Below are positions 22,404-28,226 of a stretch of 64,000 bases of DNA, in pieces. The stretch's first letter is position 1. Each line of letters starts with the position of its first letter. The notes under the pieces were generated by a model. It saw nothing but the letters and a program-made list of their open reading frames with translations, ran no database searches and had not been told where the DNA came from. Origin of the DNA: a virus; the IMG/VR virus record IMGVR_UViG_3300031576_000009, positions 1-64,000 of that record; one strand, given 5' to 3'. The position numbers and the translations under genes are program-made.

Positions 22404-23402
22404 CTACGCGCCGAGGCTCCCCTTTGCTTTCTGCTGCTGTTCCTTGGCCTCGCGAATCTGACGCTTCAGATTCTGGTACTCGGACACGTCAGACGGGCGT
22501 CCCGACTTCCGTGCACGTACTTCGGCGTCGGCGAGCTTCGCTTCGAGCCCCTTGATCTGCTGATCCGAAGGCGCTCCACGACCTCCACCGGAACCCGCAC
22601 CGCCGTCTCCATTGGCCGCTTCGACGAGGAAGGGCATCTTCTGGAGAGCGGCAGCAACGCCCTCCGCGATCGAGACGATCGAACCATCCTTCTGCCTGTA
22701 CACGAACGACTTCTGCTTATCGTCCCAGACAACGTTCTCGCGCAGGACCTTCACGCCGACTTCGAGGTCGACGCACCGATTCTTCTGCAGTGCGGTGGCG
22801 AGCTCGGTGTCCCGAATTGCCGACGCCCTGGCCGTATCGGCTTCCTGCCGGAGCTTGCGCTCCTCCACGACCATCTTCCTGGTCTCGTCGTTGTCCTTCT
22901 TCTGCTGGTCGAGCGCATCGATCGCGCTCTTCAGCTGCTTGCCCTGGATGAACTGCGCCTTCTTCCAGGCTCGGTACGCGGCCGGGTCCTTGATACCGTT
23001 CGGGATCGTCAGCTCACGCTCGAACTCTTCGAGCTCGGGGAATGGGCTGTCCTTTCCGTTGCCGGTACCGCTGCCCGCACCGTCCCCTTCGAGGTCGCCA
23101 GCGGCCTCTTCGAGGAGCTGCTTCAGCGTGGTGTAGTCGGTGTTGAGCGCATCGAACGCTTCGCGATCCTTCTCGCGAGCCGTACGCTCCGCCTTCAGCT
23201 TCGCCTCGTGCTTGTCGCTCTCACGCTTGATGATACTGTTGAGAAGCTCCTGCTGCTCGGTCGTGAAGACGACCTTCGGCTTCTCCCCGCTACCGTCTCC
23301 GGTACCGGTACCGGTTCCGCCCCCGGCGTCACCACCACCGTCGACTGAACAAAACCGTCCAACGAACACGAGATTCCCGTACTGGTCTCTTACGTACATC
23401 AC
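22404..23402 (-). CDS. capsid scaffolding protein
   Basis: Gly-rich N-terminus, FTTEQQELLN, coiled coil, PFLV...GAGSGG C-terminus; between portal and capsid. Confidence 0.8.
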   Translation of the reverse strand: MMYVRDQYGNLVFVGRFCSVDGGGDAGGGTGTGTGDGSGEKPKVVFTTEQQELLNSIIKRESDKHEAKLKAERTAREKDREAFDALNTDYTTLKQLLEEAAGDLEGDGAGSGTGNGKDSPFPELEEFERELTIPNGIKDPAAYRAWKKAQFIQGKQLKSAIDALDQQKKDNDETRKMVVEERKLRQEADTARASAIRDTELATALQKNRCVDLEVGVKVLRENVVWDDKQKSFVYRQKDGSIVSIAEGVAAALQKMPFLVEAANGDGGAGSGGGRGAPSDQQIKGLEAKLADAEVRARKSGRPSDVSEYQNLKRQIREAKEQQQKAKGSLGA

Positions 23403-25243
23403 TTCCCTCCTTTGTCACCCGCGGAGTCGCGGTTCTTGCCCTTCGCTTTCTTCGCGGAAGGTCGCTTCTCGCCCTTTTTAGGAGGAGCTGGTGCTTCCTC
23501 CTCGTCCTCGTTCGGAGTCAGCGGCGATCGACTGATCTCCTCTGCGGTAGCCGGCGTTGCTGCCGGCTGTTGCGTTGGGTCGAAGTACATCGGCCCAAAG
23601 CCTGTGATCACGAGCTCCGGCATCACCTCGATTTCGGCGCTGATGAACTGATTCAGCAACGGCGATGCGTTACGAAGCATCTTGCGCACGAGTCGCTTCT
23701 CCACCTCGCGCTTGAAGGTCGGCGACCGAATGGTCTGCTTCGCCTTCAGCACGATGTCGAGCTCATCCGCAAAAGACTCCACGCTGAAGTCATCCGGGTA
23801 GTCGACGGTGCCCTGCCACTCGATGCCAAGCCACGCATGCCAGATACGGTGAATCTGGTTCTCGGCCATCTCGATCTCGTCCGCATGCTCGGCCAAGGTT
23901 CGGTTCGTCTCGTTGAACTCGAATGCCTGGGCGATACCGGACGGGACCTTCTGCGGCTGTACCAGACCGAGACCGCCCCCGAGCTTCGCGAGGCGATACA
24001 CCTCGTCCCGCGCCCGATCGATCATGGAGGCGATGAACGCACCCGGATCGGTCGACGGGGCCAGGAAGAACGGAGCGGTCGTGCCTTCCCACTCCAGCAC
24101 GTTGTCGCTCCCGATCGTGACTTCCTGCTTCTGCTCACGATCACGCTGCATGCAGAGGATGTTCAGCGTCTTCTGGTAGACCTCTTCATCGACCAAGCTC
24201 GACCAGTTGAGGATCGCGATGTTGATCCGGCAGATGTCCGCGATGAGGGAGACGCCGAACGACGGGTACTGACTGTGCCGCTTGTTGAAGAGCGTCACGA
24301 CCGGCACGCGTCCACACGGGTGCGCGCCGCGACCGATCTCCTGTGCCTGCCCGTTCTCCACCTGATGAATGAACCACGCATCGCGTGTCCAGGTGCGATA
24401 GATACCGTCGACCCGTCCCATCGGCCGCTCAGGACCGACGTACCGACCAGGAGTCTGCCGTCCTGACGGACCGAAGCTGCCGACAAACGCCGAGGCGCCG
24501 TAGCGGGCGATCGGCGCTCCACCACGCGGCGAGAACGGATCATTCTTCTCGGGAAGCGGCTCGCGGAACCGGCACCACAGAAACTCGCCGTTCTCGTCCA
24601 CGCCCCAGTCCGGCATCTCGGACGGGAAGTAGGTGGTCAAGTACGGACGCTGTCCGTACTTCAGCCGATCGGCCTCGCTACGAATCGTCGCGCCCTCGGG
24701 CAGCCGGGGCATGTCGACGACGATGTACACGTGCCCGAATGTGAACGCGTAGCGTGCCGCATCGGCCATGTACCGATCGATCGAGTTCCCCTTTCGATCG
24801 ACGTTGCGCAGCCAGTTCGCCCATTCGCTGGCCTCGGGCGATTCCGGCATGTCGCCGAGTTCACTCAAGCTCCCGAGCCCGAGGTTTTCGAGCACGTCGC
24901 CTTCGTACGACGGTGTCCGCAGCAGCTCTTCCGGTGTCTCCTTCCGCACCACCGGCTTCGCGAAGATGTAGTGCGTGTAGAGATCGACGACTGGCTGGCA
25001 GTAATTCAGGTAGTAGAGCCGCAGCCGACGCATGTCGATCGACTTCTGGCTCTCGCGGAGATGCTGGAACAGGTACCGCTCCAGGTGCTCACCCTCGTAG
25101 CAGTCGATGAAGCGGGTCCAGCGCGGCAGGAACTCCTGGTAGCGCGGGTGCGAGTCCGTCAACGCCCGCAGCATCACCTCGCCCCCCGGAGGGCTGATCA
25201 CGCCTTGCTGTTGCTGGCGGCGGAGTTGGCGAATGACGGCCAT
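23399..25243 (-). CDS. portal protein (DUF4055/SPP1-like)
   Basis: YLNYCQPVVD, NVDRKGNSID, GHVYIVVDMP, RPYL, GRVPVV, SGIA, IDYP-like VDYPDDF; start by TGATG overlap. Confidence 0.9.
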   Translation of the reverse strand: MAVIRQLRRQQQQGVISPPGGEVMLRALTDSHPRYQEFLPRWTRFIDCYEGEHLERYLFQHLRESQKSIDMRRLRLYYLNYCQPVVDLYTHYIFAKPVVRKETPEELLRTPSYEGDVLENLGLGSLSELGDMPESPEASEWANWLRNVDRKGNSIDRYMADAARYAFTFGHVYIVVDMPRLPEGATIRSEADRLKYGQRPYLTTYFPSEMPDWGVDENGEFLWCRFREPLPEKNDPFSPRGGAPIARYGASAFVGSFGPSGRQTPGRYVGPERPMGRVDGIYRTWTRDAWFIHQVENGQAQEIGRGAHPCGRVPVVTLFNKRHSQYPSFGVSLIADICRINIAILNWSSLVDEEVYQKTLNILCMQRDREQKQEVTIGSDNVLEWEGTTAPFFLAPSTDPGAFIASMIDRARDEVYRLAKLGGGLGLVQPQKVPSGIAQAFEFNETNRTLAEHADEIEMAENQIHRIWHAWLGIEWQGTVDYPDDFSVESFADELDIVLKAKQTIRSPTFKREVEKRLVRKMLRNASPLLNQFISAEIEVMPELVITGFGPMYFDPTQQPAATPATAEEISRSPLTPNEDEEEAPAPPKKGEKRPSAKKAKGKNRDSAGDKGGK

Positions 25244-25488
25244 CAACGAATGAGCGCGTGTTCGTGCCGCATCAGATTGCAGGGACCACAGCGCCAGTGC
25301 CGGATGAGCCCGCGACGATTCGAGTGCACGACCTCCGAGTGCAGGACCATCGGGCCACCACACTGATCGCAGGTCTGCACAGCCACGGTGACCGGCTCGT
25401 GCTTCTCCTCGACCTGTCCAGGGAATGGCATCGCAGCGATCTCTGCGAGTGCTGCACAGAGATTGTCCAGGCCCTCAGTGGCTTGCAT
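25243..25488 (-). CDS. small Zn-ribbon protein
   Basis: CDQC...CGPC; overlaps both neighbours. Confidence 0.6.
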   Translation of the reverse strand: MQATEGLDNLCAALAEIAAMPFPGQVEEKHEPVTVAVQTCDQCGGPMVLHSEVVHSNRRGLIRHWRCGPCNLMRHEHALIR

Positions 25489-27869
25489 CAGTACAAACTC
25501 TCCATGCGTCGCGTGCGGACGGACGCGGCTCGCGTGCCGTAGCTGTACACGGCGTAGCGCAGGGCGTCGCTTGCGTGGTCGTTCTGCTTCACGATGACAT
25601 CCCGATTCGCGGTGCCGTCCCGTTCTACCTTGTGGCAGTACAAAGCACCGAGCTCTGCACGCAGTTTAGAACACCACTTGAAGATTCTCAATAGCGGCAG
25701 TTGCGTGGTCGGCTGCCGGCGGAACATGGCCTTCACCCGGTTGATTCCAGCGTAGACATCGTTGTTCGCTGGAATGAGGGATGGCCCGTTGTACCGACGC
25801 AAGTACTTCTGGAGATCGATGATCGCCTGCTTGCCGCTCGGGTCCGGGAACACCCACTCTTTCGAGCCGAAATCCGGGCTTGTACCGATCTGATCGGCGT
25901 GTCCTTCGAGTGGCCGGTCCTGATCACAGTAGTACTCGTGGTAGACGTACCAGGTCCCGCTGTGTGGATCGATGGCGCACTTCAGGTAGACGAAGTGCGA
26001 GCCGAAATCGATACCGGAGACGCGGGTCCAGTCGGCTGGGATTGGGAACGGATCACAGAGCCAAGGCTCCTCATCACGGAAGTGATCCCCGTACACGAGG
26101 ATCGCGCCGGAGGGGCGCAGATTCCGCCACTGCGTGTCCCAGGTATCCTTGTCGAGGAGCTGGACCTTCTTGACGAAGTCGTCGATCTTGTACCACCCGT
26201 CGCAGCTGTGGGCGATGCCGCCGCACATCTTCTCTTTGCGGCCATCCGGCATCAGCATCTCGTACGCCGGGCAGTCGCCGTACGTCTTGTCGCCCTGACA
26301 CTGACGCGTGCACTTCTCTAGCACCTCGAAGATGCACCACGAGTGGACCTTGATCTTCTTGTTGGCCGCCTCGTCGAGGAGCCGCTGCATCGTCCCCTTC
26401 TGGAACTTCCGGGTACTGGTCAGCGTGTCCTGGGCCTTCCATCCACCCTTCTCCATGGACATCTGCAAACCTTCTTGCAGCACGACCCACGGCATGAGCT
26501 CGATCTCGTCGCAGTTATGGACGAGGACGCCTTCTACGATGAAGCAGCGAACTCCGGGAACAGTCAGATCGTAAACAGGGCCGGTGGGTCCGCGATCAAC
26601 TGCAACAACCTCCACCACAGGTGCATGTGTTCGGTCCGTGCGTAGATCACGCGAAATCCCGTGGCTTCGAGCTCGATCTTCTTGCGTGCATCGCGCTCGA
26701 TCGATCGAGGCAAGTCGTGCCAGTACTGCCCGTGCACTTCGATCACTACGTTCCTGGTCAGGAGCACAAAATCGAGAATCCACTGCCTCCACACCACCTG
26801 ATGCTGAAAGGTCAAACCCCACAACCGAAGCAGCTCGATCATGCGATGCTCGGCTGATGAAACGAACCGTTTCGATCCTCGCCAACGCGCGGCGACCCGC
26901 TTCTCGTTCATCACCAGATGCGTACACTTCCGACAATGTTTCGTGTAACGCGTCGAGAGTGGTTTTCCACAACCTGGACACGGTTGCGGACGCCACCGAC
27001 TCGCTGCCTTCTCCAGCTTCCAACATTCGCGGCACAGATGTAGCCGCGTTGGTTGATGGCCATGAAGTTGCCGTTCGCACTTCGTACAGAAGTGAATCGC
27101 GAGCCGACGAACAGGGCCACGCCGTCCCAAGTTTGGTGCCAGCTTTGCAACGATCAGCGCGCAGCCACACTCCCTCGGCAGTGAGGAGACCGTGGTCTGG
27201 AGTACAGATGAGTGTTCGTCCGTTCGAGAGGTGGAGACGGATTGTCGCTTCAATTCCGGTTTGGCGAACTTCCGTGACATATCCGGTCGAAACGCGTTCG
27301 CCGGGGCGGATGAACTTGATCGCTTTGGTCGTGCCATCCGCCATCAATACACCACACTCCTCGAAAATGCAACGGAACTTGTTCGGGTGTGGTGAATTCA
27401 TACCATGATAGGTCCCCGCGATGATCTTCACCTTCGAGCCGTTCCAGAATTGGGTCTCCTTCATCAGCGGGCCACGCATGACCTGCTGGAAGAGGAGTCC
27501 TTCGTCGGTGAGGAATCGCATGAAGTACTCGTACCCACGATTCGCCTGCTCCATGATGGCGCCCGCAGAGCAGACTTCGACGCCTGGCTTGAAGAGCGCA
27601 TCGAGGATGTTGAGGATCGCGACCAGGAGCGTCTTGCCCCCACCGCGATTGGCGAATCCGATCGAGGTCCTGACCCGCTCGAAGAACTGATCAGAGAGGA
27701 AGTCCATCGGAGAGCAGTGCTGGGGGCATATCTTCTGTCGGGGCACACGGAAGCCGAAAAACTCCCAGACGAAGTCCCAGAGTTCGTCCTCCGTCCGCAG
27801 TCCGCGTTCGAGATGGTACTGGAACAGACTGCGACGGAGAACGTCCTTCGATGGAGCAGCGATTCCCAC
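25488..27869 (-). CDS. terL: terminase large subunit, intein-containing
   Basis: Walker A ANRGGGKT; Walker B KFR|CDEIE split by the intein; nuclease GIDFG...DPSG...NDHASDALRY. Confidence 0.95.
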   Translation of the reverse strand: MGIAAPSKDVLRRSLFQYHLERGLRTEDELWDFVWEFFGFRVPRQKICPQHCSPMDFLSDQFFERVRTSIGFANRGGGKTLLVAILNILDALFKPGVEVCSAGAIMEQANRGYEYFMRFLTDEGLLFQQVMRGPLMKETQFWNGSKVKIIAGTYHGMNSPHPNKFRCIFEECGVLMADGTTKAIKFIRPGERVSTGYVTEVRQTGIEATIRLHLSNGRTLICTPDHGLLTAEGVWLRADRCKAGTKLGTAWPCSSARDSLLYEVRTATSWPSTNAATSVPRMLEAGEGSESVASATVSRLWKTTLDALHETLSEVYASGDEREAGRRALARIETVRFISRASHDRAASVVGFDLSASGGVEAVDSRFCAPDQERSDRSARAVLARLASIDRARCTQEDRARSHGISRDLRTDRTHAPVVEVVAVDRGPTGPVYDLTVPGVRCFIVEGVLVHNCDEIELMPWVVLQEGLQMSMEKGGWKAQDTLTSTRKFQKGTMQRLLDEAANKKIKVHSWCIFEVLEKCTRQCQGDKTYGDCPAYEMLMPDGRKEKMCGGIAHSCDGWYKIDDFVKKVQLLDKDTWDTQWRNLRPSGAILVYGDHFRDEEPWLCDPFPIPADWTRVSGIDFGSHFVYLKCAIDPHSGTWYVYHEYYCDQDRPLEGHADQIGTSPDFGSKEWVFPDPSGKQAIIDLQKYLRRYNGPSLIPANNDVYAGINRVKAMFRRQPTTQLPLLRIFKWCSKLRAELGALYCHKVERDGTANRDVIVKQNDHASDALRYAVYSYGTRAASVRTRRMESLY
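26514..27371 (-). mobile_element. intein (286 aa) inserted in TerL Walker B
   Basis: C1 (CIFEECGVLMADG), block B ICTPDH, block F VYDLTV, block G VLVHN|C. Confidence 0.93.
26564..27337 (-). CDS. Zn-finger + Vsr/DUF559-type endonuclease nested in the +1 frame of the TerL intein (start uncertain)
   Basis: CTKC/CREC/CPGC/CRKC then SSAE...QVV...ILDF...VIEVHGQYWH...ERDARK...LEATGFRVI. Confidence 0.85.
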   Translation of the reverse strand: MARPKRSSSSAPANAFRPDMSRKFAKPELKRQSVSTSRTDEHSSVLQTTVSSLPRECGCALIVAKLAPNLGRRGPVRRLAIHFCTKCERQLHGHQPTRLHLCRECWKLEKAASRWRPQPCPGCGKPLSTRYTKHCRKCTHLVMNEKRVAARWRGSKRFVSSAEHRMIELLRLWGLTFQHQVVWRQWILDFVLLTRNVVIEVHGQYWHDLPRSIERDARKKIELEATGFRVIYARTEHMHLWWRLLQLIADPPALFTI

Positions 27870-28226
27870 TTACGGCTTCGGCTCCACCGCTCCCAGCGCT
27901 CCGTGCAGTGCGGTCGCTTCGCCATTGTCGACACGCGAGAAGAACGCGTTCATCGTGTCGAGCTGGTCCCTCAGATCGCGGAACTCGGGGCCAGAAACCA
28001 ACCGCTGTGGCAGGTCTGGATGCCCATCGTCACGGAGCTCGGCGTTTGCTGCGATCGATACCTGCAACAGACGCTCACGTCGCTCGTAGTCTACGATCGC
28101 TCGCTGAGCGACCTCCCGAGCCGTATTGATGTTCGTGCGCGCGAAGTCACGAGCACCTTCCAGCTCTTTCTGTACGACTTCGAGAGCAGCCTCCTGCTCC
28201 ACAATCGCATCCGTCGTTGCGCTCAT
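27870..28226 (-). CDS. hypothetical coiled-coil protein (in the terminase small subunit position)
   Basis: abuts the terL start; no HTH recognised. Confidence 0.6.
   Translation of the reverse strand: MSATTDAIVEQEAALEVVQKELEGARDFARTNINTAREVAQRAIVDYERRERLLQVSIAANAELRDDGHPDLPQRLVSGPEFRDLRDQLDTMNAFFSRVDNGEATALHGALGAVEPKP

Follow-up and report, generated by a model that had tools for sequence, protein, structure and literature searches.

The large terminase gene (terL) on a stretch of viral DNA of 64,000 nucleotides, referred to here as the window (positions 1 to 64,000 of IMG/VR virus record IMGVR_UViG_3300031576_000009, part of a 101.7-kb IMG/VR viral contig), encodes an intein whose middle region is overlapped by a second gene, read from the same strand in the +1 frame and encoding a predicted nuclease. 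We think it likely, at a probability of roughly 0.8, that the locus is a mobile TerL intein with a separate, overprinted homing-endonuclease gene in the +1 frame, that the nuclease is made by internal initiation, and that the host frame is held open via codon choice. An earlier reading of the letters of the window, made without database searches (the sequence-only reading), had proposed dual coding with both frames maintained, and this is now borne out by codon statistics, frame-specific conservation, two structure models and the occurrence of the layout in 13 independent phage contigs.

The TerL intein and the nuclease in its +1 frame

The TerL gene and its parts, all on the minus strand, are listed below with the basis of each assignment in brackets; pLDDT, a predicted value of the local distance difference test, is the confidence measure of the structure models.

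25488..27869 (-): TerL precursor (large terminase), 793 aa, GTG start (single open reading frame, ORF, with no stop across the intein)
27372..27869 (-): N-extein, 166 aa, ending ...HPNKFR (aligned with homologues that lack the intein)
26514..27371 (-): class-1 intein, 286 aa, TerL aa 167-452 (Intein_splicing match and boundaries from intein-less TerL)
27117..27371 (-): N-terminal Hint part, intein aa 1-85 (model with pLDDT 89-97 per 10-residue block for aa 1-80, beta strands throughout)
26625..27116 (-): intein-frame linker, aa 86-249 (pLDDT 33-53; 19% identity; avoidance of stops)
26514..26624 (-): C-terminal Hint part, intein aa 250-286, blocks F and G (model pLDDT 88-96 and conserved residues)
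25488..26513 (-): C-extein, 341 aa plus stop, starting with CDEIELMPW in the Walker B region (alignment with intein-less homologues and with PHROG TerL)

The position of the intein, which the sequence-only reading had placed at 26514..27371, could be fixed exactly and on the minus strand by comparison with the intein-less TerL proteins of two viral contigs, L002 (509 aa) and L003 (516 aa). Both are 61-65% identical to the window TerL and read without interruption across the insertion point (...NKFR|CDEIELMPW... in L002 and ...NKTR|VDEIELMAW... in L003). Excision of TerL aa 167-452 leaves ...NKFR-CDEIELMPW..., a colinear host protein that is the same as L002 at the junction, and the precise intein-less terL junction reads ...AAGTTCCGT|TGCGACGAGATC... 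The insertion point (NKFR|CDEIE) is in the Walker-B coding region, and the absence of the intein from both nearest TerL relatives is expected of a mobile element. The C-extein matches TerL families of PHROG (best E=3.2e-12), and the only Pfam match of the whole protein is to Intein_splicing (E=3.9e-10, 40.2 bits against a cut-off of 35.8, covering aa 198-452).

The motifs of a splicing intein are recognizable throughout, with Cys1 (CIFEECGVLMADG), block B CTPDH (containing T57 and H60), block F VYDL, a terminal VHN and then the +1 Cys. Residues C1, T57, H60, D268, V284, H285 and N286 are invariant in 12 related inteins, and all of them are intact in the window together with the +1 Cys. AlphaFold gave an all-beta Hint fold at pLDDT 88-97 for aa 1-85 and 250-286 of the intein and an unstructured linker (pLDDT 33-53) between them. 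As modelled, the intein is in effect a mini-intein with a predicted Hint fold made of these two parts. The middle region had been described as rich in Ala, Arg and Ser and devoid of a LAGLIDADG or HNH motif, which agrees with both its Pfam result and its composition (25 Ala, 23 Ser and 23 Arg among the 171 aa counted).

The nuclease gene and the places where it meets the intein are as follows.

26564..27337 (-): homing-endonuclease ORF, +1 frame, 257 aa, from ATG at 27337 to TGA at 26564-26566 (ORF, DUF559 match, homologues)
26924..27088 (-): two zinc ribbons, nuclease aa 84-138, presumed DNA-binding module (conserved Cys; pLDDT 78-95)
26600..26896 (-): Vsr/EDxHD nuclease domain, aa 148-246, with E163, D189, E200, H202, H207 and D216 (DUF559, 3R3P, Foldseek)
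26588..26624 (-): only folded/folded overlap, where the nuclease C-terminal helix (MHLWWRLLQ) lies over the first beta strand of the intein C-part (APVVEVVAVD)

A hidden Markov model search of both frames, the check named in the sequence-only reading, gave Intein_splicing in frame 0 and DUF559 in the +1 frame. The latter match (E=5.3e-9, 36.4 bits against a cut-off of 20.6, with weaker matches to MTES_1575 and Vsr) upholds the earlier description of the +1 ORF as four CxxC pairs (C84/87, C102/105, C120/123 and C135/138) followed by a Vsr/DUF559 nuclease. The catalytic domain of I-Bth0305I (PDB 3R3P) was matched as well, at E=3.2e-15 with the family profile and at E=2.9e-6 with the window sequence alone. 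The window nuclease has every one of the residues aligned to D196, H213 and D222 of I-Bth0305I and to the conserved acids, namely D189, H207, D216, E163 and E200, and H202 aligns to Asn208 of I-Bth0305I and to His64 of Vsr. Among 18 homologues there is no variation at D189 and H207 and almost none at E163, E200 and D216; in the zinc ribbons C105, C120, C123, C135 and C138 are invariant, and C102 is nearly so. The AlphaFold model of the nuclease (18 homologues) has pLDDT values mostly above 90 for aa 80-250 and a disordered stretch at aa 1-71, and a Foldseek search with it returned 3R3P as the best hit (TM-score 0.74, E=2.6e-5), followed by the E. coli Vsr structures 1CW0 and 1VSR. The NUMOD/helix-turn-helix N-terminal region of the I-Bth0305I family was not found in the window nuclease, which has CxxC zinc ribbons there, and a zinc-ribbon module of this kind is common to hundreds of closer homologues. 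From fold and sequence matches, then, the window nuclease is a predicted homing endonuclease of the I-Bth0305I (EDxHD) family. With HMMER, 1.84 billion representatives were searched in full; the 721 homologues recovered (best non-self E=1.1e-37) are without exception stand-alone proteins, 80-380 aa long. The nuclease gene ends, as had been read from the letters, inside block F of the intein (VYDL|TV), its stop lying 17 codons upstream of the intein end.

Different selection on the two reading frames

Frames 0 and +1 are both stop-free across the intein, as the sequence-only reading had stated, and frame +2 has about 17 stops there. The openness of the intein frame goes beyond chance. In a shuffle test, the synonymous codons of the nuclease gene were permuted with the nuclease protein and its codon usage held, and stops were counted in the intein frame. 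Shuffled versions of the window gene had 4.2 intein-frame stops on average, against none observed, and the frame was open in 0.28% of them (P=0.0028). For seven relatives, 7-27 stops were expected and none observed (P at most 1.5e-4, the frame being open in at most 0.015% of shuffles); the third frame of the same eight loci holds 9-28 stops. How the intein frame is kept open can be seen from individual codons. An at-risk codon is a nuclease codon followed by AA, AG or GA, such that T at its third position yields a stop in the intein frame. Not one of 1038 at-risk codons in 14 nested genes ends in T, compared with 23.2% T-ending codons elsewhere, and the figures for the window nuclease are 0 of 45 against 20% of its other codons.

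Conservation is likewise frame-specific. A codon-by-codon alignment of 14 nested copies showed 37% identity for the nuclease frame, whereas the intein frame, at 19%, equalled the non-coding third frame. The sole 'conserved' residues of the intein linker, a Leu-Ala, are the shadow of the invariant Tyr-Trp-His codons of the nuclease. Base composition follows the same pattern, in that TerL codons 326-400 are GC-rich at TerL position 1 (0.68-0.80), corresponding to third positions in the +1 frame, and have a GC content of 0.30-0.50 at TerL position 3, compared with 0.7-0.9 at that position in the exteins. The nuclease frame is thus the frame under protein-level selection, and the intein frame is kept open by selection; the linker is without constraint at the amino-acid level, yet strongly constrained against stops.

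The two proteins hardly compete for the same DNA. The nuclease in its folded part (about 27100..26588) has only about 37 nt in common with the folded parts of the intein (27371..27117 and 26624..26514), where the C-terminal helix of the nuclease, with its invariant H239 and W241, is encoded over the intein strand. Outside 26588..26624 one frame is functional and the other is merely kept open. It follows from the genetic code that a +1 overlap allows all stops in the host frame to be purged with the nuclease protein unchanged, because every NNT codon has an NNC synonym. Such silent purging may be the reason why the nuclease is always found in +1.

Recurrence of the layout and start signals of the nuclease

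To place the window in context, 160 relative loci were fetched from viral and metagenome collections and classed by the frame of the nuclease with respect to a long host ORF. The nuclease lies in +1 of a much longer open ORF in 17 of them (13 distinct). Stand-alone ORFs account for a further 111 loci, a long ORF in the nuclease frame for 15, and a long antisense ORF for 16. The single '+2' locus (L097) is a chance ORF at 72% GC, and no real +2 case was found among the 160. In the window and in every relative examined, the nuclease start minus the intein start, modulo 3, equals 1. The long host ORFs of the +1 loci encode either TerL or portal-MuF/MuF proteins, in which Pfam matches inteins, and the GC content of these loci ranges from 26% (L005) to 67% (L088). 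In the window, the next gene downstream of TerL is the portal gene (23399..25363; PHROG match, E=7e-59). Four insertion sites in TerL and MuF are represented among the +1 loci:

R|CDE in TerL: window, L006, L085, L088 and L090
DE|CDE in TerL, three residues downstream of R|CDE: L004, L005, L084 and L091
EW|C, elsewhere in TerL: L008 and L013
T|C in MuF: L017 and L053

At all four sites the nuclease ORF ends 7-33 codons short of the intein end, the stop usually being formed from block F codons. The C-terminal tails of homologues P0002-P0033 (STTS, FMT, FTI) had hinted at a +1 reading of the block F motif 'VYD', and this was confirmed on the fetched loci. Pairwise identities of the Hint part and of the nuclease correlate (r=0.48, Mantel p=0.012, related sequences not being independent), which fits inheritance of the two as one unit. 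The nested nucleases of L053:426-3983 and L017:1128-3863, located in portal-MuF and MuF-like proteins, also lie in +1 and are much richer in zinc ribbons; the nuclease frame of L017 runs for 482 codons without a stop within a 557-aa intein, and no ATG occurs upstream of the ribbons, only a TTG with GGAGG.

The same nuclease family occurs in other arrangements as well. Five of the 16 antisense loci (L007, L027, L032, L043 and L061) are real antisense-in-intein cases, with a zinc-ribbon/Vsr nuclease antisense in inteins of MuF-like head-morphogenesis proteins and visible C...HN|C boundaries; the remaining eleven are GC-rich chance ORFs. DUF559 and Intein_splicing were found by Pfam in a single ORF, that is in frame, in L018/L019, L026, L029, L034, L035, L045, L067 and L070, mostly in proteins of the MuF type, and L044, L047 and L072, which belong to the same frame class, are probably in-frame DUF559 inteins too. 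L029 has in addition an ADP-ribosyltransferase domain. Finally, L086, from another metagenome, is near-identical to L085 (11 differences in 2409 nt), and one of its changes, a C-to-T at L086:1023 (cf. L085:3072), turns CAG into TAG in the TerL/intein frame within the linker, with no effect on the protein of the +1 nuclease. The TAG may represent a natural transition of a contiguous intein into a 'fractured' (split) one, or else a dead allele or an error.

With regard to expression, the sequence-only reading had supposed that the nuclease is made separately, either by internal initiation or by a +1 frameshift. Most relatives have a Shine-Dalgarno (SD) motif followed by a nuclease-frame ATG at a spacing of 6-9 nt:

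L004: GGAGG-6-ATG
L085, L088 and L092: GGAG-7-ATG
L084: GGAGG, then ATG/GTG
L091: AGGAGG-9-ATG
L008 and L013: GGGAG or AGGAG-9-ATG

In the TerL Walker-B group the signals are encoded by intein codons: Leu-Glu (CTG GAG) supplies the GGAG, and Ser-Asp/Asn-Gly (GAT GG or AAT GG) supplies the ATG, about 7 codons upstream of block B. Since the relatives have GGAG or GGAGG 6-9 nt before a nuclease-frame ATG, internal initiation appears to be favoured over a +1 frameshift, and of the two routes proposed earlier this is the one that stood, nothing having been found in support of the other. Judged from these start signals, internal initiation seems well supported for the family and is presumed for the window copy, which lacks the SD motif and the ATG at that place. 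Candidate starts in the window are ATG 27337, ATG 27280 and TTG 27130, and the functional nuclease probably starts near residue 70-80.

Alternative readings, related systems and implications

Several observations weigh against an active, separately expressed nuclease in the window. At the site where five relatives have the ATG, the window has ACG (AAC GGA), and CTC CAC replaces GGAG. No SD motif above background was found at the candidate starts of the window, the best (-5.3 kcal/mol) being reached by 25% of random ATGs, as the sequence-only reading had anticipated in seeing no strong ribosome-binding site; the phage's own genes do use SD motifs (median -6.0 against a background of -3.0 kcal/mol). 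A scan of 26300-28000 for promoters and terminators found nothing. The window nuclease has two zinc ribbons, as opposed to three to five in most relatives, and about 70 N-terminal residues of its ORF are predicted to be disordered. Over the N-terminal part of the intein the openness of the +1 frame is within chance (1.85 stops expected, none observed). The window copy also lacks close company: single-protein scans of viral and metagenome contigs found no relative more than 50% identical, the closest nuclease being that of L084 at 47%, and a scan of the genome-contig collection with query A2 gave no match.

Taken together, the missing start and SD motif in a phage that uses SD, the absence of a promoter-like site, the reduced number of ribbons and the weak significance of a stop-free +1 frame given the intein-frame peptide (P=0.06 in the window) could mean that the nuclease is a recently silenced relic, which inherited a real dual layout and then lost its start and ribosome-binding site, with the intein in the decay phase of the homing cycle and maintained through vertical descent only. 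We consider this improbable. The family-invariant and catalytic residues are all intact, 257 codons run without frameshift or stop, GC at third codon positions still tracks the +1 frame, the functional part is modelled with confidence over its whole length, and ATG 27337, ATG 27280 and TTG 27130 are still available as starts. Poor expression signals are in any case typical of homing endonucleases, which are as a rule expressed at a low level.

The lack of a visible independent start in the window, together with a +1 frame that is open from 10 codons into the intein, would also suit a programmed +1 frameshift from the TerL frame, in which case N-extein, intein N-part and nuclease would be fused in one product terminating at the block F TGA. 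This seems very unlikely, given that the TerL frame at the junction has neither a stop nor a known shift-prone motif, that nuclease-frame stops just upstream of the SD and ATG exclude such a fusion in the relatives, and that the upstream openness in the window is what chance would produce. Another explanation would be that an in-frame Vsr-type endonuclease has been displaced by two compensating indels, as a sequencing or assembly artefact or in a dead gene. In-frame DUF559 domains do exist in MuF inteins, and the record is a metagenome assembly. However, the compensating-indel artefact is effectively excluded because the layout recurs, the same +1 arrangement being present in 13 other distinct contigs from unrelated samples, where the nuclease ORFs come with starts of their own and with separate stops in block F; nor would indel errors produce an intein frame with no stops where 4-27 are expected, or the total avoidance of T-ending at-risk codons.

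A mobile intein with an overprinted nuclease gene, the reading that we prefer, would operate as follows. The intein would occupy the Walker-B coding site of terL, and a free-standing nuclease gene on the same strand, in +1, would take the place usual for an in-frame endonuclease domain. During translation of TerL, ribosomes would read through the nuclease gene in frame 0, the terminase frame being kept open purely through nuclease codon choice, and the intein may be presumed to splice out, judging from its intact splicing residues. The nuclease would be produced as a separate protein by internal initiation, for which the SD and ATG are seen in relatives only and are not visible in the window copy. 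By analogy with the family, its expected role would be cleavage of terL alleles that lack the intein, close to the insertion site and in the course of a co-infection, and repair would then copy intein and nuclease together.

Out-of-frame intein endonucleases have already been published, and the window is a variant of a described layout and not a new principle. The first cases are credited to Gorbalenya 1998 in two later papers (bioRxiv 10.1101/2025.01.02.630785 and bioRxiv 10.64898/2026.09.14.751524). Gosselin, Arsenault and Gogarten described actinophage inteins with antisense LAGLIDADG, antisense Vsr-like and frame-3 endonuclease-VII-like genes (bioRxiv 10.1101/2025.01.02.630785). As in the window, these are contiguous inteins in phage genes, including TerL and minor-capsid/MuF genes, with the endonuclease as a separate ORF and an intein-frame middle without recognisable structure, and invasion of a mini-intein by a free-standing endonuclease gene was proposed as their origin. 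The Vsr-like genes in that study are antisense only, and its same-strand case is endonuclease VII-like in frame 3, whereas here a zinc-ribbon and Vsr/EDxHD protein is encoded in the sense +1 frame, at four insertion sites and in uncultured phages from outside the actinophage database. The antisense MuF form in our own set corresponds to the actinophage arrangement described in that study. Phillips et al. reported frame-specific selection on an out-of-frame LAGLIDADG gene in a dnaX intein (bioRxiv 10.64898/2026.09.14.751524). That ORF too overlaps on the sense strand, with purifying selection in the endonuclease frame, relaxed selection in the intein frame and a proposed secondary invasion of a mini-intein; it differs in being a LAGLIDADG gene in a '+2ORF' of a bacterial chromosomal gene, as opposed to a Vsr/EDxHD gene in +1 of phage structural and packaging genes.

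The fractured genes of Dassa et al. (2009), in which a free-standing Vsr-like endonuclease gene lies between the halves of a split intein in phage genes, terminase included (PMC2677866), share with the window the endonuclease family, the phage hosts and the position between the N and C parts of the intein. The 3′ overlap of the endonuclease gene with the intein C part is 6-69 bp in the fractured genes, and here about 50 nt separate its stop from the intein end. There, however, the host gene consists of two ORFs and splicing occurs in trans, whereas the TerL of the window is one uninterrupted ORF of 793 codons with a contiguous intein. A broken host state was seen only in L086, where a single base separates contiguous from split. 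The EDxHD prototype I-Bth0305I, encoded in a group I intron of recA and binding DNA through a NUMOD/helix-turn-helix region (Taylor et al. 2011, PMC3239194; PDB 3R3P), is the best match in sequence and fold, with the same catalytic Asp/His/Asp and acids and the same order of an N-terminal DNA-binding and a C-terminal nuclease part; the window protein differs in its intein-nested location and its zinc ribbons, and identity is only about 27-33% over about 90 residues. Arsenault et al. (2025) found a hidden out-of-frame HNH endonuclease in an insertion of a phage methylase, the ShiLan domain, which like the intein described here contains an endonuclease ORF and has no stop in the host frame (PMC11855218). 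That insertion is devoid of a splicing domain and remains part of the protein as a loop, whereas the TerL intein would be expected to splice out. A full-text literature search and the papers compared here yielded no report of contiguous TerL or MuF inteins that contain a Vsr/EDxHD gene on the sense strand in +1.

One can go further and suppose that the sense +1 layout is a stable, preferred design of a large and mostly unannotated family of phage intein nucleases, which moves between genes (TerL Walker B, a second TerL site and MuF), that +1 is preferred since it is the only phase in which stops can be removed silently by NNT-to-NNC changes, and that the layout is the long-sought intermediate between free-standing, split ('fractured') and in-frame states. 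We put this forward tentatively, as an idea about which we are more doubtful than confident. If it were true, all states from free-standing to in-frame endonuclease would now be observable for one nuclease family.

Nested ORFs of this kind are overlooked or cut short by gene callers, and the public protein for the contig spans residues 166-257 only. Because of this, inteins with a hidden nuclease are likely to be mislabelled as decaying inteins or mini-inteins. The public protein in question, P0001 (92 aa; window 26567..26842, minus strand), is identical to that part of the +1 ORF and apparently derives from the same contig.

The window and its 13 independent relatives add a well-supported case to the small recent literature on inteins with an overlapping separate endonuclease gene, and extend the Vsr/EDxHD family to a same-strand +1 arrangement. 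They also provide a clean natural example of a second reading frame that is held open by synonymous codon choice alone. Since five states of one nuclease family are seen among the 160 loci, namely free-standing, antisense inside an intein, sense in +1 inside an intein, in frame inside an intein, and one base away from a split intein, the model of intein evolution in which an endonuclease invades a mini-intein becomes directly testable.

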